Positions 1,250 to 40,564 of a DNA stretch of 40,564 bases are shown in pieces. The stretch covers positions 1 through 40,564 of the forward strand of contig JAPUIH010000383.1 in assembly GCA_027297205.1 (NCBI GenBank), read 5' to 3'. Origin of the DNA: SAR324 cluster bacterium (lineage in GTDB: Bacteria; SAR324; JACQKK01). The position numbers and the translations under genes are program-made. The notes under the pieces were generated by a model that saw only the letters and a list, made by a program, of their open reading frames with translations, had not been told where the DNA came from and did no database searches. The stretch's first letter is position 1; every line of letters starts with the position of its first letter.

Positions 1250-4200
1250 ATGCTGGAAATTGACTACAGCCTATTTCCACTCTCCGAGGAGGAGCACGAG
1301 CAGATTTCTGCCCGGGCGGAAAGCCTTGCGCGCCGTGGAAAGGCGCCGCCGCTCTCGCCTGCCTCCTACGGCAGGGTGGTGGTTATCAATCCATACGAGG
1401 GGCACACGCTTCACCACGTTCCCGACGATTTGCGCAGGCCGCTCCGCCGGGCCATGCTGCCGGTCTATAAGGCAAGCAAGGCGCTCACCGGCGGCCAGCT
1501 CGTAAAGGACATTCTTGAATCGACCGAGGAGCAGGTTTATCAGGTCGTTTTTGAGCTGTACTCCAAATTTCCCCACGCATTGTCATTTCTGCGCGAGATT
1601 TCGCGCGTCAAGAAAAAGTATCCTCAGTGCCGGCTGCTCATGCACGGGGAGATGGTGCGTTTTCAGGAGTTGCTCAAGGAGATCCTCAGCGAGAACGGTG
1701 CCAGTTGCGATCTGCTATTCGATCATTTCGAAGGTGCGATATCCCTGCGCAGTGTAGACCAGATTGAAAACGTGCTGGCCGAGTTGCCCCGCTATCCCAC
1801 TGTTTCCAAACCTTTTTTCTCGCATTTGCACATCAGTCAGGGAGACAAGGGGCAGAACTACAGCTTTGAGGAATTGCGGCACTTGTACCGCCAATTCGGC
1901 GTAGGCCACATCGAGGAGTTGGACATCTCCGGAAAGCTCCGGCAGAAGCTAATCATCCTGGACATACCCTTGTCCGCCATCAAGTTTCTGCGCATTGCGC
2001 CTGGGCGTGGCGACGGTATCTCCGCCATTAATCTGGACGGCCGGAAGGTTCTTCCCTCCGAGATCGCGGCGATGGGGCTGCTGGACAAGGATATTCCCAT
2101 CAGCTACGTCAAATCGGTGTATCGCAAGACCCAGGGAAAGGCAGAAGAGCAGATTTTGCTGGATCGCGTGCGCGCGCTCCGGATCAACTGCATAGAGGGG
2201 CATGTCTCGTTCTTATGGAAACCCACTGCGAGGTATATCCCGCTCTATGAAGTCAAGGGCATGCGCGTGCAGCTGGGGAAATCCAGCGCGGGCAATGGCG
2301 GGGAGGCCGTCCTCAATCCGCCGCCGGACAATGAAGTGCTGACTATCGAAAATGCAGTGATCACCGAGCAGGGACAACCGAGGTTTGGTGATATCCGCGC
2401 AGAAATCCGGCAGCGATTCCTAGAGAATGTATTTCAAGAGAATCTGGAGCGGCAGGTCAAGTTGCAGCGCTATGTTTCCAGCCTGAAGATCGCGTGCCTG
2501 GGGCCCATGGCCGCACAAACCATTCGGCTGCTGCGTCCCTATGGATTGGGCCAGTTTATTCCTCAGGAATCTCTGTACTACCTATGCGATTCCGTCGAGC
2601 AAATACCGGACTATTATCGCTCCGACGAAAGGGTGGAGCGCCTCTACGACGAGATTGTTGGGAATATCAAGGATTTGTTCGGGTTCGCGGATTCGGGAGA
2701 GATACAACCTGACCTGATCAATCACCGGCTGCCGGTCATTCAGGAATGGGCGCGGGGCGAGGTCCCTCTCGCCAGAGAAGTAACCGCGGAGCAACTGGAC
2801 GTCATCTATAAGGAAATGAAAATCTATCTGTCCTTCGTGGAAAACGAATTCCGCAGAATTAAAGCGAATGACGAGACGGATAAGGCAGTGTTCGGAACGG
2901 TGGAGCGGTGCCAGGCAACCTTGCTGCAGGTTGGGCAATTGGCCAATCTGATAGGTGGCCGGTATGGAAAGCTGCCGGACCGCCAGTCATTCCCGGATTT
3001 TGTATTTTTCAGTTCCGACAAGGATACCCTGGAAAACCGCCGATCGTATTATCTGCCCGGCCTTGCGTTTTCCGGCGTGTTTGGCGGAGACGAGATCCAG
3101 GAAATGTTTCGCTCAAACGATTTTGAATTCAGCGTGTTTCTCGAAGAACAACTGGCCCTGGCCGACTACGTCAAGTCGCAGGACTATGATGGCCAGTACG
3201 AGGCGGGTTTTTACGGCCATTACTTCGAGGGCAAGGCGGCCGAGGCCGAGAAGGAGCTTGAGAAGTTCCAGCAAACCGCGGAAAGCGTGAAGGACCCCTC
3301 GACCGATCAGTACCGGGAAGAGGTGGAACGGATGGCCGAGCACCATCGCGCCGAAGTGGAGGCCTATCGCAAGGACCGGGAGCGGCAGGTCGAAATACTG
3401 AATAGGCGGGAGTCCAACTATTTTGCGGCCTTGGGCGCGGTGAACGCTTATCTGGGTGACGTGGAATTCTCCTCGGAGCAGCCGGAATCGGGGGAAGACT
3501 ACATCCGTGCCCTGGATCAGCAACTAATTGATAAGTCCAAGGAACTGCTTGGTGAATTCAAAGAACTGGTCAGAATCAGTGCGGAAAGCACAAATTTGCT
3601 CGTGCAAGAGAAAAAGGAATCGCTCACTGCTTACCTGCTGGCCTTTTCGAAGGCGCAGAAGGCGCTCTACTCAAACATGAAGGCGGATTATGGAGTTGTA
3701 TTGGAAGAACTCTACCGGGCCGGTCTTCCGGAAATGTTGGACAAGCTGACCATCATTGCCCGCATATCCGATGATGAACTGGAAGCTGCCGAGAGTAATC
3801 TGCGCAGGCGCACAAATGCACTCAAATCGGAAATGACCGAAATCGCGGATAAAGTGAACCGCAACGTCAAGAAGAACCAGCAGACCATGGTGGCCATTCG
3901 GGAGGCTACGCGTCGGCTGGTGGCTTCCATTTCGAGCCCCGTGGAGGAGAAATTAAGCGAGGACGATCCCGCGGCGGTGGTAGCAAAACTGAAGGAGCGG
4001 CTCGAATTTGTCAAACGGGAAACCTTGAAAATTATCGCCGCTGCGGAGGCCAGCTACGAGACGGTGCAGGGGATTAAATCTCAACAGCGCAGCAGGTGCG
4101 AAAAGACCGTGGCCCTGCATATCGGCGATAACGAGCAGGCCATGATCGAAGCCCGCAAGGGAGGCTCACGCCTGGAGAGATTTATGGCGAAGAAGGTGGA

Positions 4201-5254
4201 GAAGCCGCTCCTGCCTGCGCTGGCTTTCGGGGACCGCAATTCGGCCGGCGGTTTATCGGAACAGGCGAGAATTGAAATTGCCGCGTGGCGCGAGGAAGGG
4301 GATATGCTGCGCGAATTTAGCGGGCGGGCGCTGAACTTGGAGGACATCGGCAAGGAACTGGAAACCTATCAGGAGTTTGAGAAAGTGTCGCGCGGCTTCC
4401 GGCGCGCGGTGCGGGAAAAGACCGTTACCCAGCAGGCAACGGCCAGGATCAACGAGCGCCTGGAGCAATTGGAACAGGAAAGGGAAAACATCGACCAGTT
4501 CGTGCAAGAGTGTATGCTGCCAGCCCATGCCAACTATGCGGAGCGGGTGCATATTCCCAACTTGCGCAAGCGAATCGCCTATTTCCGGCAAACCCTCACA
4601 TTCGTGCAGGCGTTGCAGGGGATATCCTTCTCTGACTTGCAGCGGAAATTTTTGGACCGGGCCATTTTCAGGCGCTTTTATGCCACCCAGTTCCGCACGG
4701 GCGCCCATTTTGGTCTGAATTCCGAATTGCCCATCTTCTCCAGACTGAGCAATATTACCGACGCGTTGTCGCTGTTTCACAGAAACCTGCTCACGACCCT
4801 GAGGGGATTTGGATACGACTCCAATGAGTTGACGCTGACCAGGCTTCCCGCGGAGCGGCCCGCCGGCGTCATACAATTCATTGAACAGCAAAAGCAGGCT
4901 TCGCCCGAACAGCGGCTGACTTATCTCATCCTCCCAGGCACCTTATCGCTTTCCCAAGCCCTCGAAATCATCCACCACAAGGAGGACTTGTACAACGGCC
5001 TGCCTCAGTTGGTGCTCATCTACGTCAGCAAATTCGACGCGGCCCTGCTCCACGAGAATCCAATCTTGCGCGAGCGCTATTTTGACGCGATGAAGCATAA
5101 CATCATCGTCAATATCGACGACGAGCACGTGATTGACAATCCAAAGACCATCGCCGATTTCCTGATCGAGCAAACCCTGGGCTGTTGCCATGACATCAAC
5201 GAGGATATGGCAACATCCATGGATATCGATAAAGCGCGAGGCGGCGTGGCGTGA
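1250..5254 (+). CDS. very large (1334 aa) hypothetical protein with a coiled-coil-rich central third; no recognisable catalytic motif
   Basis: Uninterrupted 4 kb ORF with normal-looking amino-acid composition. The central part (about nt 3170-4490) is rich in E/K/R/Q/L in a heptad-like pattern. I see no signal peptide, TM segment or P-loop. Its TGA stop overlaps the GTG start of the next gene (GTGA at 5251-5254). Confidence 0.8.
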   Translation: MLEIDYSLFPLSEEEHEQISARAESLARRGKAPPLSPASYGRVVVINPYEGHTLHHVPDDLRRPLRRAMLPVYKASKALTGGQLVKDILESTEEQVYQVVFELYSKFPHALSFLREISRVKKKYPQCRLLMHGEMVRFQELLKEILSENGASCDLLFDHFEGAISLRSVDQIENVLAELPRYPTVSKPFFSHLHISQGDKGQNYSFEELRHLYRQFGVGHIEELDISGKLRQKLIILDIPLSAIKFLRIAPGRGDGISAINLDGRKVLPSEIAAMGLLDKDIPISYVKSVYRKTQGKAEEQILLDRVRALRINCIEGHVSFLWKPTARYIPLYEVKGMRVQLGKSSAGNGGEAVLNPPPDNEVLTIENAVITEQGQPRFGDIRAEIRQRFLENVFQENLERQVKLQRYVSSLKIACLGPMAAQTIRLLRPYGLGQFIPQESLYYLCDSVEQIPDYYRSDERVERLYDEIVGNIKDLFGFADSGEIQPDLINHRLPVIQEWARGEVPLAREVTAEQLDVIYKEMKIYLSFVENEFRRIKANDETDKAVFGTVERCQATLLQVGQLANLIGGRYGKLPDRQSFPDFVFFSSDKDTLENRRSYYLPGLAFSGVFGGDEIQEMFRSNDFEFSVFLEEQLALADYVKSQDYDGQYEAGFYGHYFEGKAAEAEKELEKFQQTAESVKDPSTDQYREEVERMAEHHRAEVEAYRKDRERQVEILNRRESNYFAALGAVNAYLGDVEFSSEQPESGEDYIRALDQQLIDKSKELLGEFKELVRISAESTNLLVQEKKESLTAYLLAFSKAQKALYSNMKADYGVVLEELYRAGLPEMLDKLTIIARISDDELEAAESNLRRRTNALKSEMTEIADKVNRNVKKNQQTMVAIREATRRLVASISSPVEEKLSEDDPAAVVAKLKERLEFVKRETLKIIAAAEASYETVQGIKSQQRSRCEKTVALHIGDNEQAMIEARKGGSRLERFMAKKVEKPLLPALAFGDRNSAGGLSEQARIEIAAWREEGDMLREFSGRALNLEDIGKELETYQEFEKVSRGFRRAVREKTVTQQATARINERLEQLEQERENIDQFVQECMLPAHANYAERVHIPNLRKRIAYFRQTLTFVQALQGISFSDLQRKFLDRAIFRRFYATQFRTGAHFGLNSELPIFSRLSNITDALSLFHRNLLTTLRGFGYDSNELTLTRLPAERPAGVIQFIEQQKQASPEQRLTYLILPGTLSLSQALEIIHHKEDLYNGLPQLVLIYVSKFDAALLHENPILRERYFDAMKHNIIVNIDDEHVIDNPKTIADFLIEQTLGCCHDINEDMATSMDIDKARGGVA

Positions 5255-12207: not shown

Positions 12208-13221
12208 TTATTTAGGAATTTCCCGCGCGCACTGCACCGCGAGGTCAAAATAACTCTGTGCGGTGTGGGCCAGTTCGCTGCGCACCTCATCGGAAATTTC
12301 TTCCGAGGCCTGGGATTCGCTGAAGATAAGACCGCTGCGCATGGCTTGCAGGGTGCGGTAGGGGGGCAACATGGTTGTGATCTCCCGGTCCCGGGATGCA
12401 CTGACGTAACGCTTCACGAATAATTCGGTCTGCTCCGTGGCTTCGTGCCGGGCCAGCTCATTAAGGAATGTCGCCAGGTCGTTCGCGGCGTCCAGCACCC
12501 GGAATTTCTTGGAGCCGCTCAGTGGAGACACGGCAAATACATCCTTGCCTTTGATGTACACGTGCTCGGGAACGAAAGCTCCATGGCATTCCAGTACCCG
12601 TCCCTTCTTTTGCCGCCGCAAGAATAGCTTGCGGTGGTCCTCCACGAATTTGAAAACGGGCCGTGTCACCGCGTCCAACACCGGCGGGGACACCGTAATG
12701 TTCACGTACTTTTTGACCTGGTAGAGCACTTCCTCCGTCAGATCACGAAAATTTTCCGGCCGTCCCGCGCCTGGTGCGATCTCCTCCTGGGGGCTTTCCC
12801 GGTGGCATTGCGCCAGGTAGCGGGCCAGTCTGCCAACCATCGCGGAGTTAAACTTTCCCTGAGGGATTTGCTTGTGCAGCCAGTAGTGGTCGGAAAGCTG
12901 GATCAGACGGAGCGCATAATCCACTACCTCTCCCTCACCATGGAGAGCATAGCCGCCCGCCGATTTTACAATGGGAACGACATCCAGGTAGATTTCCGGC
13001 GCCCAGCGCCTGCCCAGGGCCAGTGTTTCGCGTGCATACACCTCCCGCAACGCGATGGAGGAACTCGTCGGACCGGCTTTGCGCACTACGTAGGCAAACT
13101 CCCCCGTCCTGTAGATATATGAATTCCGGGTTTCTTCAAATTTAATACGGCGGCTCGCCGAAGGATAACTGGCCTCGTTGAGGAGTGCCCGGTGATATTC
13201 GGGATAAGTGGCGGTGGCCAT
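12208..13221 (-). CDS. hypothetical protein resembling the N-terminal (phosphotransferase-like, COG2187-type) part of bifunctional aminoglycoside phosphotransferase/ATP-binding proteins
   Basis: Long ORF with coding-like composition. The ATG at 13221 is preceded by GGGGGA at good spacing. The N-terminal pattern EETRNSYIYRTGEFAYVVRK...RE..LNrR-like is recalled from COG2187 proteins. The functional assignment is weak. Confidence 0.6.
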   Translation of the reverse strand: MATATYPEYHRALLNEASYPSASRRIKFEETRNSYIYRTGEFAYVVRKAGPTSSSIALREVYARETLALGRRWAPEIYLDVVPIVKSAGGYALHGEGEVVDYALRLIQLSDHYWLHKQIPQGKFNSAMVGRLARYLAQCHRESPQEEIAPGAGRPENFRDLTEEVLYQVKKYVNITVSPPVLDAVTRPVFKFVEDHRKLFLRRQKKGRVLECHGAFVPEHVYIKGKDVFAVSPLSGSKKFRVLDAANDLATFLNELARHEATEQTELFVKRYVSASRDREITTMLPPYRTLQAMRSGLIFSESQASEEISDEVRSELAHTAQSYFDLAVQCAREIPK

Positions 13222-13307
13222 TATTTTTCCCCCGGTCAGGACATTCACACACAGTGCTATTGCCCACGAGCGTGCCTGAAAACTCTCCGCGGCTATAGCT
13301 CATCCAT

Positions 13308-17421: not shown

Positions 17422-17829
17422 CTATTGGGTCATCAGCTCGAAGCCGTAGAGCACAAGCTTGTCCACTTCATCCGGTTTGAAGCCGAGGCTCTTGCCGACC
17501 GCGGCCACCATCTCCTTTTCCTTCTTATCGAAATCCTTGTCGGACACCGCCACGCGGATAAGGTCGATGATCATGGACATGCCCATTTTGCGATCAATGC
17601 CCGGGGGGCTGCCAATGGGGGGCACGGTCTTGAACTGGACGAACTTCTTGAGCCGATCCACCACGTCCGGGTCGGGCACGAGCTGGATCACTTTCAGCAG
17701 AAAATCCATTTCGCTGCGGTCGATGTTCCCGTCGGCCAACACCATCCCCACTATCGCCGTCGCGAACCATTCCCGTGCTCGGGGATTGAGTTCGCTGACC
17801 TTGGTTTTAAAAGCGACGTCCATGGCCAT
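17422..17829 (-). CDS. TerB-like (tellurite-resistance TerB / DjlA N-terminal-like) domain protein
   Basis: 135 aa with two ADG/SDK...E repeats (LADGNIDRSEMDFL and SDKDFDKKEKEMV), as in TerB-family helical domains. The assignment is from memory. Confidence 0.5.
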   Translation of the reverse strand: MAMDVAFKTKVSELNPRAREWFATAIVGMVLADGNIDRSEMDFLLKVIQLVPDPDVVDRLKKFVQFKTVPPIGSPPGIDRKMGMSMIIDLIRVAVSDKDFDKKEKEMVAAVGKSLGFKPDEVDKLVLYGFELMTQ

Positions 17830-18049
17830 GGGACACCTTGGGGATAGGGCAAGCGCCTTGCGGCAGCCTGCATTACTATTGCGAACTACCTTGCTTTAAC
17901 GGGCCTGCATCAGAAGCGGTAGCCATAATCCTTAAAAAAAAGTGGCAAAATTTACAAGCAATATCGACGCTTCAACCCATTTCCGCTGAAACGGTGTGGC
18001 GCGGCCTGCTCTGCCGCAACGGGGCGCCGTCGTGATTTTTCTGCCCGGC

Positions 18050-18889
18050 TTAAGCCCGCTCGGGAACTTCGATCGGCAAGTCCTGCCGATCCCCCCACTC
18101 TTTCCATGAACCAATGAAATTCTGCACGTTGTCGTAGCCCAACAGCCGCAACGCCAGATAGGCATGGGAAGAGCGGTACCCGCCTTGTCAGAAGGGCACG
18201 ATGGCCTTGTCGCGCGTGATTCCCGCGGACTCGAACAGTGCCGCCAGTTCCGCCGCCGGCTTGAATTTGCCCTCGTTGTCCAGGTAGTTGGTCCATTCCA
18301 GGTGAATGCCGCCGGGAATGGTGCCGCCCCGGGGGCCTCCCCGCGTGTTGCTGCCCAGCCACTCGTCGTCGGCGCGGGTGTCCAGCACCGCCAGATTCTC
18401 GTCGCCCAGCTTGGCGTTCAGGTCATCCGCGGAGATGAAAATCTCCTCGCGGGGGGTGATGGGCAGGGAGTGGGGCTTGGGCGCGCGCATTTCCTGTGTT
18501 GTCTCGAAACCCGCCGCCTTCCAGGCGCTGATGCCCCCGTCCAGCACGTGCACGTCCTTGTGGCCGAAATACTCCAGCAGCCAAAAGGCCCGCGCGGCGC
18601 GAATGCCCGATTCCGCTTCATAGGCCAGCACGGTGCGATCCATGCCCACGCCCCGCAGCCCCATCTGGGAGCGCATCATGTCAATGTATTCTCTCATCAA
18701 CTCGGCTGTGGTCTGGGCCAGATGCACCCCGTACAGGTCGAAATGCGCCGCTCCGGGGATAATGCCGGTCATGATTTCGTGGGATGGCCGCATATCCAGT
18801 ATCACCAGATTTTCGTCCCCCAGCCGTTCCTTTAATTGCTGAGGCGTCCAGATCAGTCCGGCGTTGGGAAAGCTCTCAAGAGCTGCCAT
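18050..18889 (-). CDS. two-domain rhodanese (thiosulfate/3-mercaptopyruvate sulfurtransferase-like) with an in-frame TGA at the catalytic Cys (candidate selenoprotein)
   Basis: The ORF 18188..18889 stops at the TGA (18188-18190). The same frame then continues for 45 codons to a TAA at 18050-18052. The junction reads [54 protein letters not shown], which is the rhodanese active-site loop C-x4-R-S plus the conserved GSW.EW tail. An AGGAGAGG ribosome-binding site precedes the ATG at 18889. Confidence 0.8.
18169..18190 (-). promoter_or_regulatory. hairpin immediately 3' of the rhodanese UGA (possible SECIS, atypically close)
   Basis: The mRNA reads UGA C AAGGCGG-GUA-CCGC(U)CUU. This is a 7-bp stem with one bulged U and a G/U-containing apex. 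The apex lies only 12-13 nt after the UGA, closer than in the E. coli fdhF model. Confidence 0.35.
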
Positions 18890-20417
18890 CTGCCTCTCCT
18901 CTCAGAATTCGGGTTATCAAATCCACTATCAACCGCACGCCGGCTCCGCTTCCTCCCTTGGGAAATTGCGGATGGTCGCCGTCGCTCCATGCATAGCAAT
19001 CCAAGTGCGCCCACGCAACGTCTCCGGCAAACTCCTTGAGGAACATGGCCGCGGTGATGGCTCCGCCCATTCCGTCGCTGGCGGCGTTAACCAGATCGGC
19101 CACGGAGCTGTCCAGTTTCCTGCGGTAAGGTTCCCACAATGGCAGCGGCCATACGTGGTCGCCGGAAGCCTCCCCGGCCGCCACCAGCGCGTCCCGCAGA
19201 GCGTTGTCGTTGCAGAACAGACCCATCAGTTCCTTGCCCAGGGCGATCCGGCAGGCACCGGTGAGGGTGGCGAAGTCGATCATGTAGCGGGGTTTGTAGG
19301 TAAGGGCCAGCGCGTAGGCATCGGCCAGCACCACCCTTCCTTCCGCGTCGGTGTTGGTAATTTCGATGGTCAGCCCCTGTTTGCTGCGCAGGATATCGCC
19401 GGGATGATAGGCTCGCGGCCCCACGGCGTTTTCGGCCAGCCCCAGCACCGTCACCAGATGCACCGGCAGACCCAGCCCAGCGATGGCCCGCAAGGCGCCC
19501 ATCACGATCGCGGCGCCCCCCATATCCTTCTTCATCATGGCCATGCCGCTGCTGGATTTCAGGTCCAGCCCGCCCGTGTCGAAAACCACCCCCTTGCCCA
19601 CCAACGCCACCGTGGGCCGGCGCCTGCCCCCCTTGCCATACTCCAGCACGGCCAGCGCGGGGGGATGTTCGGCGGCGCGGCCCACCGCGTGAATGGCCCC
19701 GTAGCCCTCCTTTAGCAGCCTGTCTCCCCGAATGGCCCGGTAGGATGCGCCGGTCAGGCGCCCCAGCTTGCGGGCTTCGGCCAGCATGAAATCCGTGTGG
19801 GCCACTCCGGCCGGATGATTAATGAGATCCCTGGTCAGGGCGACGCCCCCGCCCACCGCGCCGCCGTCCTTCACACCCTTGCGCAGCACGGGCAATTGCC
19901 CCTTGCCCACCACTTCCACCGTGCAGGATCCGGGGCTGTTGCCCCGGGTGCGGTAATCCATGAAGGCATATCCGGTCATGTGCAGCGCCTCGCTGGCCAG
20001 CCGCGCCGCCTCCTCTTCGGGCCAGGGCAGGCCGCTGGGCAGCAGCAGGGATATCCTGCCGGCGCCCGCCCCACGCAGTTCCTTGAAGCCGCGCGCAATG
20101 GCCGCCGCAAAGCGGGGGCGGGTCAACACGCCCGCCTCCCCCAGTCCGGTGAACAGCCACTGGGAATCCCCATGGGGCAGCAGCATGCTTTCTCCTTCCG
20201 CGCCCTTGAAGTTGCGCATTTTCGCCAGGGTTGCCGCCGCCGCCGCCACGGCTTTTCCAGCATGGGCGAAGTCCCATTCCGTAGGGCCGGCCGGACTGAA
20301 CAGGGGTACCATGCGGTGGGGAAAGCCCGCCTTCCCGGTTGCTTTTACGCTTACATTCATACCTTGTTCGCTTTCTATGCTGGTGACTCGCCCCGGTATC
20401 CGGGTGGACGGGGACAT
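18876..20417 (-). CDS. pepA: leucyl aminopeptidase (M17 family)
   Basis: VGKGVVFDTGGLDLK and NTDAEGRVVLADA motifs. The stop overlaps the rhodanese start by 14 nt. An alternative start is the ATG at 20360. Confidence 0.9.
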   Translation of the reverse strand: MSPSTRIPGRVTSIESEQGMNVSVKATGKAGFPHRMVPLFSPAGPTEWDFAHAGKAVAAAAATLAKMRNFKGAEGESMLLPHGDSQWLFTGLGEAGVLTRPRFAAAIARGFKELRGAGAGRISLLLPSGLPWPEEEAARLASEALHMTGYAFMDYRTRGNSPGSCTVEVVGKGQLPVLRKGVKDGGAVGGGVALTRDLINHPAGVAHTDFMLAEARKLGRLTGASYRAIRGDRLLKEGYGAIHAVGRAAEHPPALAVLEYGKGGRRRPTVALVGKGVVFDTGGLDLKSSSGMAMMKKDMGGAAIVMGALRAIAGLGLPVHLVTVLGLAENAVGPRAYHPGDILRSKQGLTIEITNTDAEGRVVLADAYALALTYKPRYMIDFATLTGACRIALGKELMGLFCNDNALRDALVAAGEASGDHVWPLPLWEPYRRKLDSSVADLVNAASDGMGGAITAAMFLKEFAGDVAWAHLDCYAWSDGDHPQFPKGGSGAGVRLIVDLITRILRGEADGSS

Positions 20418-28657: not shown

Positions 28658-30682
28658 ATGACGAGCAAGGCAATCGCTTCCAAGGACCTGCCGCGCCTGG
28701 CTGCCCATGCCATTCGATTCCTGGCGATGGACGGGGTGCAGAAAGCCAAATCGGGCCATCCCGGAATGCCCATGGGAATGGCGGATATCGCGACGGTATT
28801 GTGGACGAAGGTGCTGAATTACAATCCAGCAAATCCAGACTGGCTGGACCGGGACCGCTTCGTGCTGTCCAACGGTCATGGTTCCATGCTTCTGTACAGC
28901 CTGCTGCACTTGAGCGGCTATGACCTGCCCATGAAGGAGTTGGAGAATTTCCGGCAGTTGGGCAGCAAGACTCCCGGCCATCCGGAAGCAGGCCACACCA
29001 AGGGCGTGGAAGTGACCACCGGCCCCCTGGGGCAGGGTATCTCCAATGCCGTGGGGCTGGCCCTGGCCGAAAGATGGCTGGCGGCCCGCTTCAACAAGCC
29101 CGGACATCAGATCATCAATCACCACACCTATGTATTCGCCGGAGACGGTTGCCTGATGGAAGGGATCTCTCATGAATCCTGCAGTCTGGCGGGGCATCTG
29201 AGGCTGGGCAAGCTGATCCTGTTTTATGACGACAACCATATCAGCATCGACGGCAACACTAAGCTGTCCTATTCCGACAACGCCACGGCGCGCTTCTCCG
29301 CTTACGGCTGGCATGTCCAGAAGGTGAACGGTCACGATCAGGCCGCTGTGGCCAAGGCCATCGCCGCCGCCCGCAAGGAAAGCAAGCGTCCTTCCCTGAT
29401 CGCTTGCCGCACGGTGATAGGCTGGGGGGCGCCCACCCTGGCCGGCTCCCATGCCACCCACGGCTCGCCCCTGGGCCAGGACGAGATCGCAGCCACGCGC
29501 AAGGCCCTGGGCTGGCCGTGGCCGCCCTTCAAGGTGCCCCGGCCCGTGCTGAACTACTGGCGCTCCGCCCTGGTGCGAGGCAAAAAGTCAGAGGGAGAAT
29601 GGAATCGCAAGGTGAGCGCATACCGCAAGGCCCACCCCACGGAAGGGGCGGAGCTGCAACGCATCATCGCGGGCAAGCCCTCCACGGCTTGGCAGGCGCC
29701 TCTGAACAAGCTGCGCAGGTCCCTGCTGAAGAGTGCGCCGGATACGGAAGCTACGCGGGTGGCCTCGGGCATGGTGCTGAATGCCGTGGGCATGGCCCAC
29801 CCGGACTTGATCGGAGGCTCGGCGGACCTGACCCCCTCCAACAACACGCGGGTGAAGGAATACGAGGATATCGCGCCAGGCAAGTTCAGCGGCAAGTACA
29901 TCCGCTATGGGGTGCGGGAGCACGGCATGGCCGGGATCATGAACGGCCTGGCCCAACACGGCGGGGTGGTGCCCTATTCGGGCACCTTCGCGATTTTCAC
30001 CGACTACCTGCGCCCGGCCATGCGGCTCTCCGCGATAATGGGGGCGCAGGTGATCTATGTGCTTACCCATGACAGCATCGGCCTGGGGGAGGACGGGCCG
30101 ACCCATCAGCCGGTGGAGCACTACGCGGCTTGCCGCGCCATCCCCAACCTGTACGTCTACCGGCCCTGCGATGTCCGGGAGACCCTGGAATGCTGGGAGT
30201 CAGCCCTGCGCCGTACGAACGGCCCCGCCGCGCTGCTACTGACCCGCCAGAAACTGCCCACCTTCCCCGGCACGGGAAAAGGCGGAGTGAAAAATGGCGG
30301 GTATGTGCTTGCGGATACGCCCAAAGGTCTTGCGCTCAAGGTGGTGCTGATGGGCACCGGCTCCGAAGTGCAACTGGCCATGGAAGCGCGGGAGCAGTTG
30401 AGCAAGCAGAAAATCGGGGCACGGGTGGTGAGCATGCCCTGCTGGGAGGCTTTCGAGGCTCAGCCCCAAGCCTACCGCAACCGGGTGATTCCGCCCAGGG
30501 TCACGGCCCGCGTGGCCGTGGAGTCCGGGGTGGAATTGGGCTGGGGACGTTACCTGGGCGACAAGGGTGTGATGGTGGGCATGAAAGGCTTCGGCGGCTC
30601 GGCCCCCTTCGACAAGCTCTTCAAGCATTTCGGCATTACCAGCGCCGAGGTGGTCAAGGCAGCCAAGAGCGCAATGAAATGA
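28658..30682 (+). CDS. tkt: transketolase
   Basis: GHPGMPMGMADIA, DRFVLSNGHGSMLLYSLLHLSGY, GPLGQGI, GDGCLMEGISHE, THDSIGLGEDGPTHQPVE. An AAGGA ribosome-binding site is present. Confidence 0.95.
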   Translation: MTSKAIASKDLPRLAAHAIRFLAMDGVQKAKSGHPGMPMGMADIATVLWTKVLNYNPANPDWLDRDRFVLSNGHGSMLLYSLLHLSGYDLPMKELENFRQLGSKTPGHPEAGHTKGVEVTTGPLGQGISNAVGLALAERWLAARFNKPGHQIINHHTYVFAGDGCLMEGISHESCSLAGHLRLGKLILFYDDNHISIDGNTKLSYSDNATARFSAYGWHVQKVNGHDQAAVAKAIAAARKESKRPSLIACRTVIGWGAPTLAGSHATHGSPLGQDEIAATRKALGWPWPPFKVPRPVLNYWRSALVRGKKSEGEWNRKVSAYRKAHPTEGAELQRIIAGKPSTAWQAPLNKLRRSLLKSAPDTEATRVASGMVLNAVGMAHPDLIGGSADLTPSNNTRVKEYEDIAPGKFSGKYIRYGVREHGMAGIMNGLAQHGGVVPYSGTFAIFTDYLRPAMRLSAIMGAQVIYVLTHDSIGLGEDGPTHQPVEHYAACRAIPNLYVYRPCDVRETLECWESALRRTNGPAALLLTRQKLPTFPGTGKGGVKNGGYVLADTPKGLALKVVLMGTGSEVQLAMEAREQLSKQKIGARVVSMPCWEAFEAQPQAYRNRVIPPRVTARVAVESGVELGWGRYLGDKGVMVGMKGFGGSAPFDKLFKHFGITSAEVVKAAKSAMK

Positions 30683-31347
30683 CCCTAATCGCCCCCTCCA
30701 TCCTTTCCGGCGACTTCGGCCGGATCAACGAGGAAATTGCCGCGGTGCAAGAGGCCGGGGCGGACTGGATCCATCTGGACGTGATGGATGGCCGCTTCGT
30801 GCCCAACCTGACCTTCGGTGCGCCGGTGGTGAAGTGCCTGGAAAAGCGCCCGGGTCTTATCTATGACGCGCACCTGATGGTGGAGGAGCCCGCGCTGCTG
30901 GTGCCCGGGTTCGCGGAGGCGGGTTGCGACCGCATTACGATCCATGCCGAAGCCGCGGGGCATTTACACCGCGCCCTGCAACTGATCCGATCCCTTGGGC
31001 TGAAGGCCGGGGTGGCCCTCAATCCGGGGACGCCCCTGGAAGCGGTGGACTGGGTGCTGGAAGACGTGGACATGGTACTGCTGATGTCGGTCAATCCGGG
31101 CTTTGGCGGCCAGGGCTATATACCGCAATCCACGCGCAAGATCGGCAAACTAAAGGAGACCCTGCGTCAGCGGGGTCTGGAGACGCTCATTCAGGTGGAT
31201 GGCGGCATCAATACGGACACCATCGGAGAGGCGGCGGCGGCCGGGGCGGATGTATTCGTGGCGGGCACCGCGGTGTTCGGGGAGCCGGACTACAAGCAGG
31301 CCATCGAGCAACTGCGTGAGCGGGCCGCCCAGGGAGAAAATGCCTAG
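30679..31347 (+). CDS. rpe: ribulose-phosphate 3-epimerase
   Basis: IAPSILSGDF, HLDVMDGRFVPN, MSVNPGFGGQ, QVDGGIN. The ATG overlaps the tkt stop (ATGA). The upstream part of ORF 30130.. is only an out-of-gene extension. Confidence 0.93.
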   Translation: MTLIAPSILSGDFGRINEEIAAVQEAGADWIHLDVMDGRFVPNLTFGAPVVKCLEKRPGLIYDAHLMVEEPALLVPGFAEAGCDRITIHAEAAGHLHRALQLIRSLGLKAGVALNPGTPLEAVDWVLEDVDMVLLMSVNPGFGGQGYIPQSTRKIGKLKETLRQRGLETLIQVDGGINTDTIGEAAAAGADVFVAGTAVFGEPDYKQAIEQLRERAAQGENA

Positions 31348-37904: not shown

Positions 37905-39482
37905 ATGACCATACTCGGCATACCCATCCTGACCCTGATTGTTTTCGCCCCCCTGGCGGGGGTGGCGCTGCTGCTGTTCGTGGACCGCTCCGCGGAATCC
38001 CTGGCCAAGTGGATCACCCTGCTGGTGAGCGGCATCACCTTCCTGTTCTCATTGCCGTTGTACTGGTTATTCGACGAGACACAGGCGGGCTTCCAGTTTG
38101 TGGAAAAGGTGCCCTGGATCAATACCTGGGGGGTGGAATACCACCTGGGCCTGGACGGCATCACCCTGTTTCTGGTGATGCTGACGACCCTGCTCACCTT
38201 TGTCGCCGTGCTGGGCACTTGGACCCAGGCCGACCGCCACGTGCGGGAGTTCATGATCACCATGCTGCTGCTGGAAGTGGGGATGAACGGCGTGTTCGTG
38301 GCCTTGGACGTGTTCCTGTTTTATGTGTTTTGGGAAGTGATGCTCTTCCCCATGTACTTCCTGATTGGGGTCTGGGGCAGCGATCGGCGCCTGTACGCAG
38401 CCATCAAGTTCGTGGTTTACACCATGACCGCCTCGGTGTTGATGCTGGCGGCGATCCTCACCATGTACTTCCTCAATTACAAAGCCACCGGGGAATTCAC
38501 CTTCTCCCTGCTGTCCTGGTACGAGCTGGACGTGGGCCTGCCGGTGCAATACTGGCTCTTCGCCGCTTTCGCCCTGGCCTTCGCGGTGAAAGTGCCCATG
38601 TTCCCCTTTCACACCTGGCTGCCGGACGCCCACGTCGAGGCCCCCACCGCCGGCTCGGTGCTCCTGGCGGGGGTGCTTCTGAAGATGGGTACTTACGGAT
38701 TCATCCGCTTCGCCATGCCGCTTTTTCCGGAAGCCACCGACGCCGCCCTGCCCCTGCTGATCACGATCTCGGTGATCGGCATTATTTACGGGGCGCTGGT
38801 GTGCATGGTGCAGCCCGACATGAAGAAGCTGGTGGCCTACTCCTCCGTGTCCCACCTGGGATTCGTGATGCTGGGGCTGTTCGCCCTCAATGCGGAAGGG
38901 GTGGAGGGGGGTGTGCTGCAGATGCTCAATCACGGCGTGAGCACTGGCGGGCTGTTTCTCGTGGTGGGCATGATTTACGAGCGCCGCCACACCAAGACCA
39001 TCGCCGAGTTCGGCGGGCTGATGAAAGTAATGCCCATCTACGCCACCCTGATGCTGATCATCGTGTTGTCCTCCCTGGGATTGCCCAGCCTGAACGGCTT
39101 CGTGGGCGAATACCTGATCCTGGTCGGGATTTACCAGGTCAGTCCCCTGGCGGCCATCATATCCGCCTCCGCGGTCATTCTGGCGGCGGTCTACCTGCTG
39201 TGGATGTTCCAGCGGGTGTTTTTCGGCGAAGTGGACAATCCGAAAAACCTGGGTCTCAAGGACCTGTCCTTGCGCGAGATCGCCGTGCTGGCGCCGCTGA
39301 TCATTCTGATCGTGTGGGTGGGGGTTTATCCCAAACCCTTCCTGGACAAGATAGGGCCTTCCGCGCAGAAATTTATTCAGATGGTGCAGGTTCCGGCCTC
39401 CTCACGCACCCAGGTGGTTCTTGCGCCCAGGTCCGGCAGGGCCGCGCCGCAAGTGCCGCATAGCCAGCCGGAACGCCGATGA
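37905..39482 (+). CDS. nuoM: NADH-quinone oxidoreductase subunit M
   Basis: FYVFWEVMLFPMYFLIG, KVPMFPFHTWLPDAHVEAPTAGSVLLAGVLLKMG and VAYSSVSHLGF. Confidence 0.95.
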   Translation: MTILGIPILTLIVFAPLAGVALLLFVDRSAESLAKWITLLVSGITFLFSLPLYWLFDETQAGFQFVEKVPWINTWGVEYHLGLDGITLFLVMLTTLLTFVAVLGTWTQADRHVREFMITMLLLEVGMNGVFVALDVFLFYVFWEVMLFPMYFLIGVWGSDRRLYAAIKFVVYTMTASVLMLAAILTMYFLNYKATGEFTFSLLSWYELDVGLPVQYWLFAAFALAFAVKVPMFPFHTWLPDAHVEAPTAGSVLLAGVLLKMGTYGFIRFAMPLFPEATDAALPLLITISVIGIIYGALVCMVQPDMKKLVAYSSVSHLGFVMLGLFALNAEGVEGGVLQMLNHGVSTGGLFLVVGMIYERRHTKTIAEFGGLMKVMPIYATLMLIIVLSSLGLPSLNGFVGEYLILVGIYQVSPLAAIISASAVILAAVYLLWMFQRVFFGEVDNPKNLGLKDLSLREIAVLAPLIILIVWVGVYPKPFLDKIGPSAQKFIQMVQVPASSRTQVVLAPRSGRAAPQVPHSQPERR

Positions 39483-40564
39483 CCAACCCCTTTACCACTA
39501 TTGATTTTCTCGCGGTGCTGCCCGAGACCATCATCGCCGTGATGGGCATGGTGGTGATCGTGATTGAGTTGTTCGGCACCGGGCGGGACACGCGCAACCT
39601 GGCCTACTTGAGCCTGCTTTCCCTGATCGTGGCCGGATACGTCGACGTGCTGCTGCTGGGCCGCAATCTGGAGGGGTTCTGGGGCACGGTAAGCGCCGAC
39701 GACTATTCCATTGCCTTCGAACTGATATTCCTGACCGTCTCCGGCCTGACCGTGCTGATCTCCATCCGCTATCTGGAAGACAGGCTGCTGCGTCATGGGG
39801 AGTATTACGCCCTGCTGCTGTTTGCCACTGTAGGCATGATGCTGCTGGCCTCCGGGCTGGACCTGCTGCTGATCTTTATCGGGCTGGAAATCCTGTCCAT
39901 ATCCAGCTACATCCTCTGCGGCATGATCCAGGCCGACCCCCGCTCCAACGAGGCCGCGCTCAAGTATTTCCTGCTGGGCGCATTTGCCACCGGGTTCCTG
40001 CTTTACGGCATCGCCATGCTCTATGGCGCCACGGGTTCCATTGAACTGCGTGAGATCAACGCGGAACTGGCCAAGGAGGACACCTTCAAGAATCCCTACA
40101 TCTGGATCGGCCTGGGCTTCATTCTGGTGGGATTCGGATTCAAGATCGCCCTGGTGCCCTTCCATATGTGGACCCCGGACGTGTATGAGGGCGCCCCCAC
40201 CGCCGTCACGGCCTTTCTGTCCACCGGGCCCAAGGCCGCCGGCTTCGCCGCGCTGATCCGCATCCTCTTCGAGGGGCTGGGCGCCACCCAGGCGGAATGG
40301 AGCCAGGTGCTGTGGGTGCTGGCCGCGCTGACCATGACCGTGGGCAATGTGGTCGCCCTGCAGCAGGACAATATCAAACGGATGCTCGCCTACTCCTCCA
40401 TCGCCCATGCGGGATATATCCTGGTGGCGGTGGTGGCCGGGGGACCGGAGGGACTGGCCGCGGTTTTGTTTTACACTTTCGCCTACACGTTGATGAATTT
40501 TGGGGCTTTTGCGATCCTGATCCTGGCCTCGAGCAAGGATCGTGAGCGGGTCACCTTCAGCGAC
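39479..40564 (+). CDS. nuoN: NADH-quinone oxidoreductase subunit N, 3' end lies outside the window
   Basis: My own translation from the ATG at 39479, which overlaps the nuoM stop (ATGA), gives MTNPFTTIDFLAVLPE...LIFIGLEILSISSYILCG...EAALKYFLLGAFATGFLLYG...FKIALVPFHMWTPDVYEGAPT...MLAYSSIAHAGY. The frame stays open to the window end. Confidence 0.9.
   Translation, partial: MTNPFTTIDFLAVLPETIIAVMGMVVIVIELFGTGRDTRNLAYLSLLSLIVAGYVDVLLLGRNLEGFWGTVSADDYSIAFELIFLTVSGLTVLISIRYLEDRLLRHGEYYALLLFATVGMMLLASGLDLLLIFIGLEILSISSYILCGMIQADPRSNEAALKYFLLGAFATGFLLYGIAMLYGATGSIELREINAELAKEDTFKNPYIWIGLGFILVGFGFKIALVPFHMWTPDVYEGAPTAVTAFLSTGPKAAGFAALIRILFEGLGATQAEWSQVLWVLAALTMTVGNVVALQQDNIKRMLAYSSIAHAGYILVAVVAGGPEGLAAVLFYTFAYTLMNFGAFAILILASSKDRERVTFSD

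Follow-up and report, generated by a model that had tools for sequence, protein, structure and literature searches.

Does the in-frame TGA in a rhodanese gene of a marine SAR324 cluster bacterium end the protein or encode its catalytic residue, and, if it is decoded, which signal in the messenger goes with it? The gene lies on contig JAPUIH010000383.1, the whole of which (40,564 bp) was analysed and is called the window below. On the minus strand an open reading frame (ORF) of 233 codons runs into the TGA, where the public annotation (NCBI, JGI) ends the product; 45 further sense codons follow in frame, and read-through yields 279 amino acids. The best explanation overall, and in our view a probable one, is a selenocysteine (Sec) tandem rhodanese with a split Sec insertion sequence (SECIS), composed of a long-range helix (helix A) and a hairpin (hairpin B) beyond it. 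The coding features are the following:

18050..18889, minus strand: predicted full selenoprotein coding sequence (279-residue two-domain rhodanese), with ATG at 18889, Sec-UGA at 18190-18188 and TAA at 18052-18050.

18188..18190, minus strand: predicted Sec codon, an in-frame TGA at residue 234, the catalytic Cys position, in the active-site loop U-Q-G-G-Y-R-S.

The Pfam Rhodanese domain (PF00581) matches two stretches of the 279-residue product (E=4.6e-33), and the product aligns from end to end with the tandem rhodaneses 1e0c, 1uar and 3hzu, best with Azotobacter vinelandii RhdA (1e0c, E=1e-42). In the alignment to the PDB sequences the TGA falls on Cys230 of RhdA ('vpfCQGGYRS' against 'vthCQthhRS'), and the tail behind it supplies the remainder of the active-site loop as well as the GSWxEW motif; given this position, the 233-residue product would be without its active-site loop and its last domain helices. 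An earlier reading of the sequence (the first-pass annotation) had placed the TGA at the catalytic Cys of a two-domain rhodanese, and had let the 45 further codons complete the loop and a GSW-EW motif in a protein of 279 residues. Coordinates and translation match ours, and the alignment and the Pfam result bear out both statements. The best NCBIfam match is the equivalog of the SseA-type 3-mercaptopyruvate sulfurtransferase (3-MST), yet under its cut-off (123.7 vs 250 bits). The protein thus counts as a rhodanese of the thiosulfate/3-mercaptopyruvate sulfurtransferase type, with either substrate putative. The selenoprotein models NF041203 and NF045694 cover other rhodanese forms, and the NCBIfam search found no dedicated model for the Sec form of the COG2897-type rhodanese.

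Homologues were examined in the top 120 clusters and in 89 related loci that were fetched. The best clusters fall into two sets, 57 called at 228-242 amino acids and all ending at the same residue, and 63 called at 276-309 amino acids with 'C-QGGYR[SA]' at that residue. The catalytic codon is TGA in 37 of the 89 loci, never TAA or TAG, and TGC or TGT in sister genes. Behind the TGA of these 37 loci lie 44-48 conserved in-frame codons, and six loci added later also possess TGA, which brings the total to more than 40 sequences. Conservation of the downstream codons, a check that the first-pass annotation had proposed, is pronounced: the ratio of nonsynonymous to synonymous substitution rates (dN/dS) is 0.10 over 40 post-TGA codons of 32 non-identical Sec-type genes (0.18 outside the RNA helices), and the 45 downstream codons of the window's gene are translated under purifying selection. 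A sequencing error, the other doubt raised earlier, is disfavoured by four independent assemblies (three metagenome-assembled genomes (MAGs) from NCBI, one from Logan) which contain the same gene with 1-3 single-nucleotide polymorphisms (SNPs) and an identical TGA and tail. SAR324 MAGs with the gene include GCA_027298105.1, GCA_027293585.1 and GCA_027295025.1. Among 23 ordinary genes of the window, 9 end in TGA, so the standard genetic code applies there. UGA has been kept against TGC/TGT in two or more genomic contexts and over a deep divergence, with identity of the N-terminal 233 residues down to ~45-50%; such persistence implies that it has an advantage over Cys. It is highly probable that the locus is a genuine Sec-type rhodanese gene, and the UGA at 18190-18188 is almost certainly read through, as selenocysteine.

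The signal accompanying this UGA was sought in the RNA. The synonymous identity per codon of the Sec-type genes reaches its maximum not beside the UGA but at codons +32 to +40 (G-D-R-x-D-L-P-I-E), with values of 0.77-1.00 (Leu +37: 0.56) vs 0.25-0.62 in Cys-type genes. Over these codons the Sec-type nucleotides read GAUCGGC-WGGAYYU-GCCGAUC, a perfect hairpin of 7 bp with a loop of 7 nucleotides (nt), or of 8 bp with a 5-nt loop if loop position 1 is A. Independently of the synonymous profile, RNAalifold predicted both this hairpin and helix A de novo from an alignment of 32 Sec-type sequences (UGA -15 to +129), for which 41 Cys-type orthologues served as control. Helix A joins the consensus CCGYUCYUC to G-A-ARGARUGG ~70 nt further on, in 9 bp with one bulged A and 63 nt enclosed; it begins exactly 11 nt past the UGA and closes off a domain of 82 nt. 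In the window, the parts are arranged as follows:

18177..18187, minus strand: unpaired 11-nt spacer from the UGA to the first helix A pair (CAAGGCGGGUA), as given by the RNAalifold alignment.

18168..18176, minus strand: 5' arm of helix A (CCGCUCUUC; Tyr-Arg-Ser-Ser codons), predicted by RNAalifold, 100% paired, with two covarying pairs.

18105..18167, minus strand: variable 63-nt domain inside helix A, with lineage-dependent folds and two C-G pairs as its only conserved pairing.

18095..18104, minus strand: 3' arm of helix A (G-A-AAGAGUGG, one bulged A; Trp-Lys-Glu-Trp codons), with partner-specific covariation (p ~5e-6).

18092..18094, minus strand: GGR linker from helix A to hairpin B, its third position a purine in 32/32 Sec-type vs 18/41 Cys-type sequences.

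18071..18091, minus strand: hairpin B, GAUCGGC-AGGACUU-GCCGAUC (Asp-Arg-Gln-Asp-Leu-Pro-Ile codons), the candidate SelB-binding part, 7-8 bp with an invariant GG loop, -11.9 kcal/mol.

Across the Sec-type alignment, standard pairing is found in all 512 of 512 pair-cells, a value matched by none of 500 column shuffles, and if the partners are slid by 1-3 columns pairing is reduced to 32-59%. Compensatory double changes occur at four pairs, namely 33:108 (CG in 27 sequences, UA in 5), 36:105 (CG 22, UA 8, UG 2), 117:133 (UA 31, CG 1) and 118:132 (CG 31, AU 1). Among 28 other third-codon positions, the best associate of column 33 is 108 (p=5e-6) and that of column 36 is 105 (p=4e-6), with p=1 and 0.64 for the crossed combinations; this partner-specific association rules out a drift in GC content at third codon positions (GC3) as the source of the U-A/C-G covariation. 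The pair states switch several times on the gene tree, with U.G intermediates. There are 36 G.U cells in all, including one invariant G.U pair, which argues for sense-strand RNA and not a DNA palindrome. Imposed on the 41 Cys-type orthologues, this structure pairs to 72%, a level that shuffles also attain: pairs resting on synonymous third positions are mostly broken, and the amino-acid-fixed pairs are shared because a nearly identical peptide is encoded.

Unconstrained single-sequence ensembles give mean pair probabilities of 0.83 (Sec-type) vs 0.00 (Cys-type) for helix A and 0.99 vs 0.18 for hairpin B, and helix A is present in the minimum free energy (MFE) structure of 97% of Sec-type vs 0% of Cys-type sequences. 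In a held-out check, four divergent lineages and two more SAR324 contigs all possess TGA and 16/16 pairs, except that one contig ends early and possesses 9/9. G123 of the loop falls on a synonymous third position, where G stands in 32/32 Sec-type vs 21/41 Cys-type sequences, and G124 is likewise invariant in the 32 Sec-type sequences (loop consensus WGGAYYU). The third positions of Arg and Tyr are likewise fixed in Sec-type genes, Tyr always being UAC, a constraint that follows from the first pair of helix A. There is very little doubt that a conserved, UGA-specific RNA structure accompanies the Sec-type rhodanese genes.

Cys-type genes nested in Sec clades (locus L020; loci L022, L023, L027, L034, L037, L038, L049 and L050) possess recognisable but decaying versions of hairpin B, often without the loop GG. 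In some, for example, this GG has become CG or AG or a stem G has become A, and third-position pairs of helix A are broken. From their sequences, these copies look like fossil SECIS elements left after replacement of Sec by Cys.

Is the structure a SECIS? According to the consensus for bacterial SECIS (bSECIS) elements (Zhang & Gladyshev 2005, per PMC13188914), these have an apical loop of 3-9 nt, an upper stem of 4-16 bp, a G at loop position 1 or 2 or both, with G or U as the usual next base, an MFE <= -7.5 kcal/mol and a distance from UGA to loop of 16-37 nt. Hairpin B lies within these ranges in stem and loop size, loop G and MFE (-11.9 kcal/mol). The only position of a bSECIS-grade hairpin in the post-UGA region is at 103 nt from the UGA, where it is present, with an MFE <= -7.5, in 100% of Sec-type vs 5% of Cys-type sequences. 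Hairpins compliant with the consensus 16-37 nt past the UGA occur in just 6% of Sec-type and 7% of Cys-type sequences, with no enrichment, and short post-UGA fragments have folding z-scores near 0, no better than shuffles. The scan for a SECIS that had been recommended on first reading thus finds no canonical element near the UGA; the structure that is tied to the UGA lies at 18176-18168/18104-18095 plus 18091-18071. Helix A and hairpin B together probably constitute a discontinuous, i.e. split, SECIS.

In the mechanism that we propose, hairpin B would be the SelB-binding stem-loop, as its shape and its association with the UGA suggest. Helix A would pair position +12 with +93; counted along the folded chain, loop and UGA would then be ~21 nt apart, a distance inside 16-37 nt if the 82 nt that helix A closes off are left out of the count. 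While the UGA occupies the A site, helix A would be located immediately outside the mRNA entrance and could present hairpin B, carrying SelB-GTP-Sec-tRNA(Sec), near h16, the position usual for a SECIS of the fdhF type; in the E. coli complex, SECIS and SelB are located near helix h16 of the 16S rRNA. The 63-nt interior would be a tolerated insertion, seemingly encoding essential protein sequence. The enzyme may work like RhdA and SseA, with an Enz-Se-S(-) selenopersulfide or perselenide intermediate instead of Enz-S-S(-).

Several points weigh against this account. In the linear sequence the loop of hairpin B lies 103 nt from the UGA, outside the bSECIS range, and its binding by SelB is inferred from shape and association alone. 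No Rfam family matches the whole window at the gathering threshold, or positions 18000-18300 at E<=10. Neither selA, selB, selC or selD nor any tRNA gene is found in the window, and the only literature found on SAR324 and selenium lists two incomplete single-cell genomes as 'orphan SelD', without a detected Sec trait. A crude scan of the fetched loci for a second selenoprotein gene (a TGA-interrupted ORF with a GG-loop hairpin) yielded nothing convincing, and no experimental precedent for juxtaposition by a helix was found in the literature.

A first rival is that the Sec-rhodanese is genuine and that helix A and hairpin B serve another UGA-linked role (such as pausing, slowing of release factor 2 (RF2) or mRNA protection), SelB then recognising a different element, weakly structured or lineage-specific. 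We consider this reading unlikely, though worth weighing. It gains from the broken distance rule, from the ~12.6% of bacterial selenoprotein entries without a recognisable SECIS, by which unknown signals must exist, and from the status of hairpin B as a candidate SelB ligand. It loses by the synonymous profile, RNAalifold and the hairpin scan, none of which reveals any other conserved structure or synonymous constraint from the UGA to the stop codon, by the match of hairpin B to known SelB ligands in the size of stem and loop, in the loop G and in stability, and by the decay of the structure once the UGA becomes a Cys codon.

Read-through of the UGA without Sec, in which helix A would stimulate read-through generically and insertion of Cys or Trp by a near-cognate tRNA would furnish a low level of full-length enzyme, is more doubtful. 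It would fit an organism with SelD but without SelA and SelB, and it agrees with the orphan-SelD entry of the SAR324 single-cell genomes and with a window devoid of sel genes. The UGA is, moreover, always followed by C, a weak termination context in bacteria. The same C is, however, equally present after this codon position in Cys genes, and the codon stands at a residue where Sec and Cys exchange, the classic signature of a selenoprotein. Trp at the catalytic position would inactivate the enzyme. The retention of UGA over TGC/TGT across deep divergence and at least two contexts also speaks against it, and the invariant GG-loop hairpin would be left unexplained.

The first-pass annotation had itself pointed to a 7-bp hairpin, AAGGCGG-GUA-CCGC(U)CUU, directly behind the UGA as a possible, if uncertain, SECIS:

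18169..18186, minus strand: mini-hairpin of the first-pass annotation, present in the sequence and not conserved or thermodynamically favoured as a structure.

The hairpin exists, at 18186-18169; its role as the canonical SECIS is very unlikely. It is the local MFE structure of a 51-nt fragment, RNAalifold finds a 5-bp core of it on a 75-nt alignment, and the invariant UAC of Tyr would suit it. Yet one of its pairs is broken in 5 of 30 sequences, none covaries, its z-score is ~0, and its loop lies 8 nt from the UGA, outside 16-37 nt. Once the full region is folded its ensemble probability is 0.01 (mean pair probability 0.01 in Sec-type vs 0.10 in Cys-type sequences); helix A competes successfully for the same CCGCUCUUC bases, and its first pair already accounts for UAC. 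The mini-hairpin arises for the most part incidentally, from the codons for Q-G-G-Y-R-S.

Hardly tenable is a DNA operator for a dimeric regulator in place of an RNA hairpin: GATCGGC-N7-GCCGATC has perfectly inverted 7-bp halves around a 7-bp spacer, a geometry typical of operators, but G.U wobble variants are tolerated (loci L016 and L054), changes are compensatory and do not preserve half-sites, the repeat is found only with the UGA, whatever the downstream gene context, and it is accompanied by helix A, with its invariant G.U pair and arms 63 nt apart. An artefact or pseudogene, i.e. a sequencing error or nonsense mutation leaving a truncated 233-residue protein, as called by NCBI and JGI, can be dismissed, being refuted by conservation (TGA in four assemblies and >40 divergent sequences, dN/dS of 0.10 downstream) and by the loss of the active-site loop and the last domain helices that such a product would suffer.

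The Sec tandem rhodanese with a split SECIS bears on an open problem, that of bacterial selenoprotein genes without a recognisable SECIS, for which the family offers a concrete, covariation-supported architecture together with a built-in negative control, the Cys orthologues encoding the same peptide. If it is true, the rule 'immediately downstream, 16-37 nt' concerns folded and not linear distance, and some of the ~12.6% of genes without a canonical SECIS may hide similar split elements. If it is confirmed, SECIS-search tools should permit helices that bridge insertions, and engineered Sec insertion could relieve the codons directly after the UGA of structural constraint. As for the enzyme, sulfurtransferases with a selenolate in place of the persulfide carrier are uncharacterised; such a selenolate bears on selenopersulfide and perselenide trafficking. 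The truncated deposits (57/120 clusters) and the lack of an NCBIfam model indicate, furthermore, that annotation systematically miscalls a selenoprotein which is fairly common in the environment. The truncated products are named 'thiosulfate/3-mercaptopyruvate sulfurtransferase' by JGI and 'rhodanese-like domain-containing protein' or 'hypothetical protein' by NCBI.

The rhodanese gene of the window is flanked by two genes on the same strand:

18876..20417, minus strand: pepA (M17 leucyl aminopeptidase), overlapped at its stop, over 14 nt, by the start of the rhodanese gene; synteny is kept in the SAR324-like clade.

17422..17829, minus strand: downstream neighbour, a conserved ORF of 135 amino acids with only a faint TerB (PF05099) match.

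The order pepA, rhodanese, small TerB-like ORF is kept across the SAR324-like clade (the window and loci L001, L002, L010-L020 and L094-L098). A soil clade of Sec-type genes lacks the upstream pepA, so that there are at least two genomic contexts for the selenoprotein gene with its RNA element. In this soil clade (loci L026, L030, L031, L036, L041, L042, L044, L048 and L059) the conserved N-terminal motif LLWTPEQ is encoded by a perfect inverted repeat of 7-10 bp, CTGCTCTGG-ACG-CCAGAGCAG, ~30 nt into the rhodanese coding sequence (~2525-2550 in L036). The TGA stop of the upstream gene lies 33 nt before the loop of this repeat, which is absent from the window's own sequence and may act as a hairpin in translation initiation or coupling, or may be due to chance.

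The window is a complete contig of housekeeping genes, among them pepA, nadA/nadC, tkt, rpe and nuoEFGJLM. An ORF of 1334 amino acids (1250-5254, plus strand), adjoining a glycosyltransferase gene and a VWA-domain gene, has no Pfam (E<=1e-5) or NCBIfam (E<=1e-3) match, and the same holds for ORFs of 346 (12208-13248, minus strand) and 343 amino acids (39377-40408, minus strand). A 405-residue ORF with ribulose-phosphate 3-epimerase (30130-31347, plus strand) overlaps the transketolase ORF (28658-30682, plus strand) by ~550 nt. The Pfam domain spans only residues 187-383 of the former, and the true rpe start therefore probably lies much further downstream; the overlap is an artefact of the ORF listing and not biology.

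Among known selenoproteins, 'Rhodanese-related sulfurtransferase, COG2897' was a new predicted family in the 2005 Sargasso Sea study (3 sequences) and a previously identified family in the Global Ocean Sampling (GOS) survey (1 sequence), and it appears in a 2026 review under 'form 4, UxxG', still uncharacterised. Having stood in selenoproteome lists since 2005, the enzyme is not novel; the first-pass annotation had described Sec-containing rhodanese-like sequences as predicted in metagenomic surveys and uncharacterised, and the literature agrees. The published family has the same two-domain SseA-type architecture, and U-Q-G-G fits UxxG; with its representatives AACY01016424 and MCY3690685.1 compared by family description, identity at the subfamily level is putative. 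Where the surveys counted 3 and 1 sequences, 57 of the 120 top clusters are Sec-type here: the gene adds a member to a family that was already predicted, and it is far commoner than published counts suggest. RhdA (1e0c), the Thermus protein 1uar, Mycobacterium SseA/CysA (3hzu/3aax) and E. coli SseA (1urh) have the same fold of ~270 residues. RhdA shares the position of the active-site loop and the GSWxEW motif, and differs in its catalytic Cys and the loop QTHHRS, vs Sec and QGGYRS here.

Interest attaches not to the enzyme family but to the recoding signal, which the first-pass annotation had missed. The 2005 study described a SECIS-like stem-loop, screened 'immediately downstream' of the UGA, whereas the conserved structure of the present genes is split, and its apical loop lies 103 nt off. 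Reviews and the 2026 BSepDB paper likewise place the bacterial SECIS immediately downstream of the UGA; the latter reports 12.6% of bacterial selenoprotein entries without a canonical SECIS and calls for expanded models. No description of a distant or discontinuous bacterial SECIS was found in the literature, and we lean, with some reserve, towards a previously undescribed class in which the SelB hairpin lies ~100 nt away and is placed by a long-range helix. In E. coli fdhF the structured region is also located inside the coding region, with the same 11-nt spacer to the upper stem-loop. There, as in the canonical SECIS, the element at +12 carries the loop, whereas here helix A is a separate long-range helix and hairpin B follows 3 nt later.

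The SECIS elements in the 3' untranslated regions (3'-UTR) of eukaryotes and archaea resemble the present one in that the signal is not contiguous with the UGA. A 3'-UTR SECIS is reportedly also among the constructs that Su, Li and Gladyshev engineered in E. coli in 2005. In some eukaryotic mRNAs, a proximal helper stem, the Sec redefinition element (SRE) or proximal stem-loop (PSL), together with the SECIS resembles the combination of helix A and hairpin B, i.e. a proximal helix and a distal hairpin. Unlike the distal elements of eukaryotes and archaea, the whole signal of the rhodanese genes lies inside a bacterial ORF, SelB alone would be expected to serve it, with no adaptor of the SBP2 type, and proximity to the UGA would come from the folding of the RNA itself.

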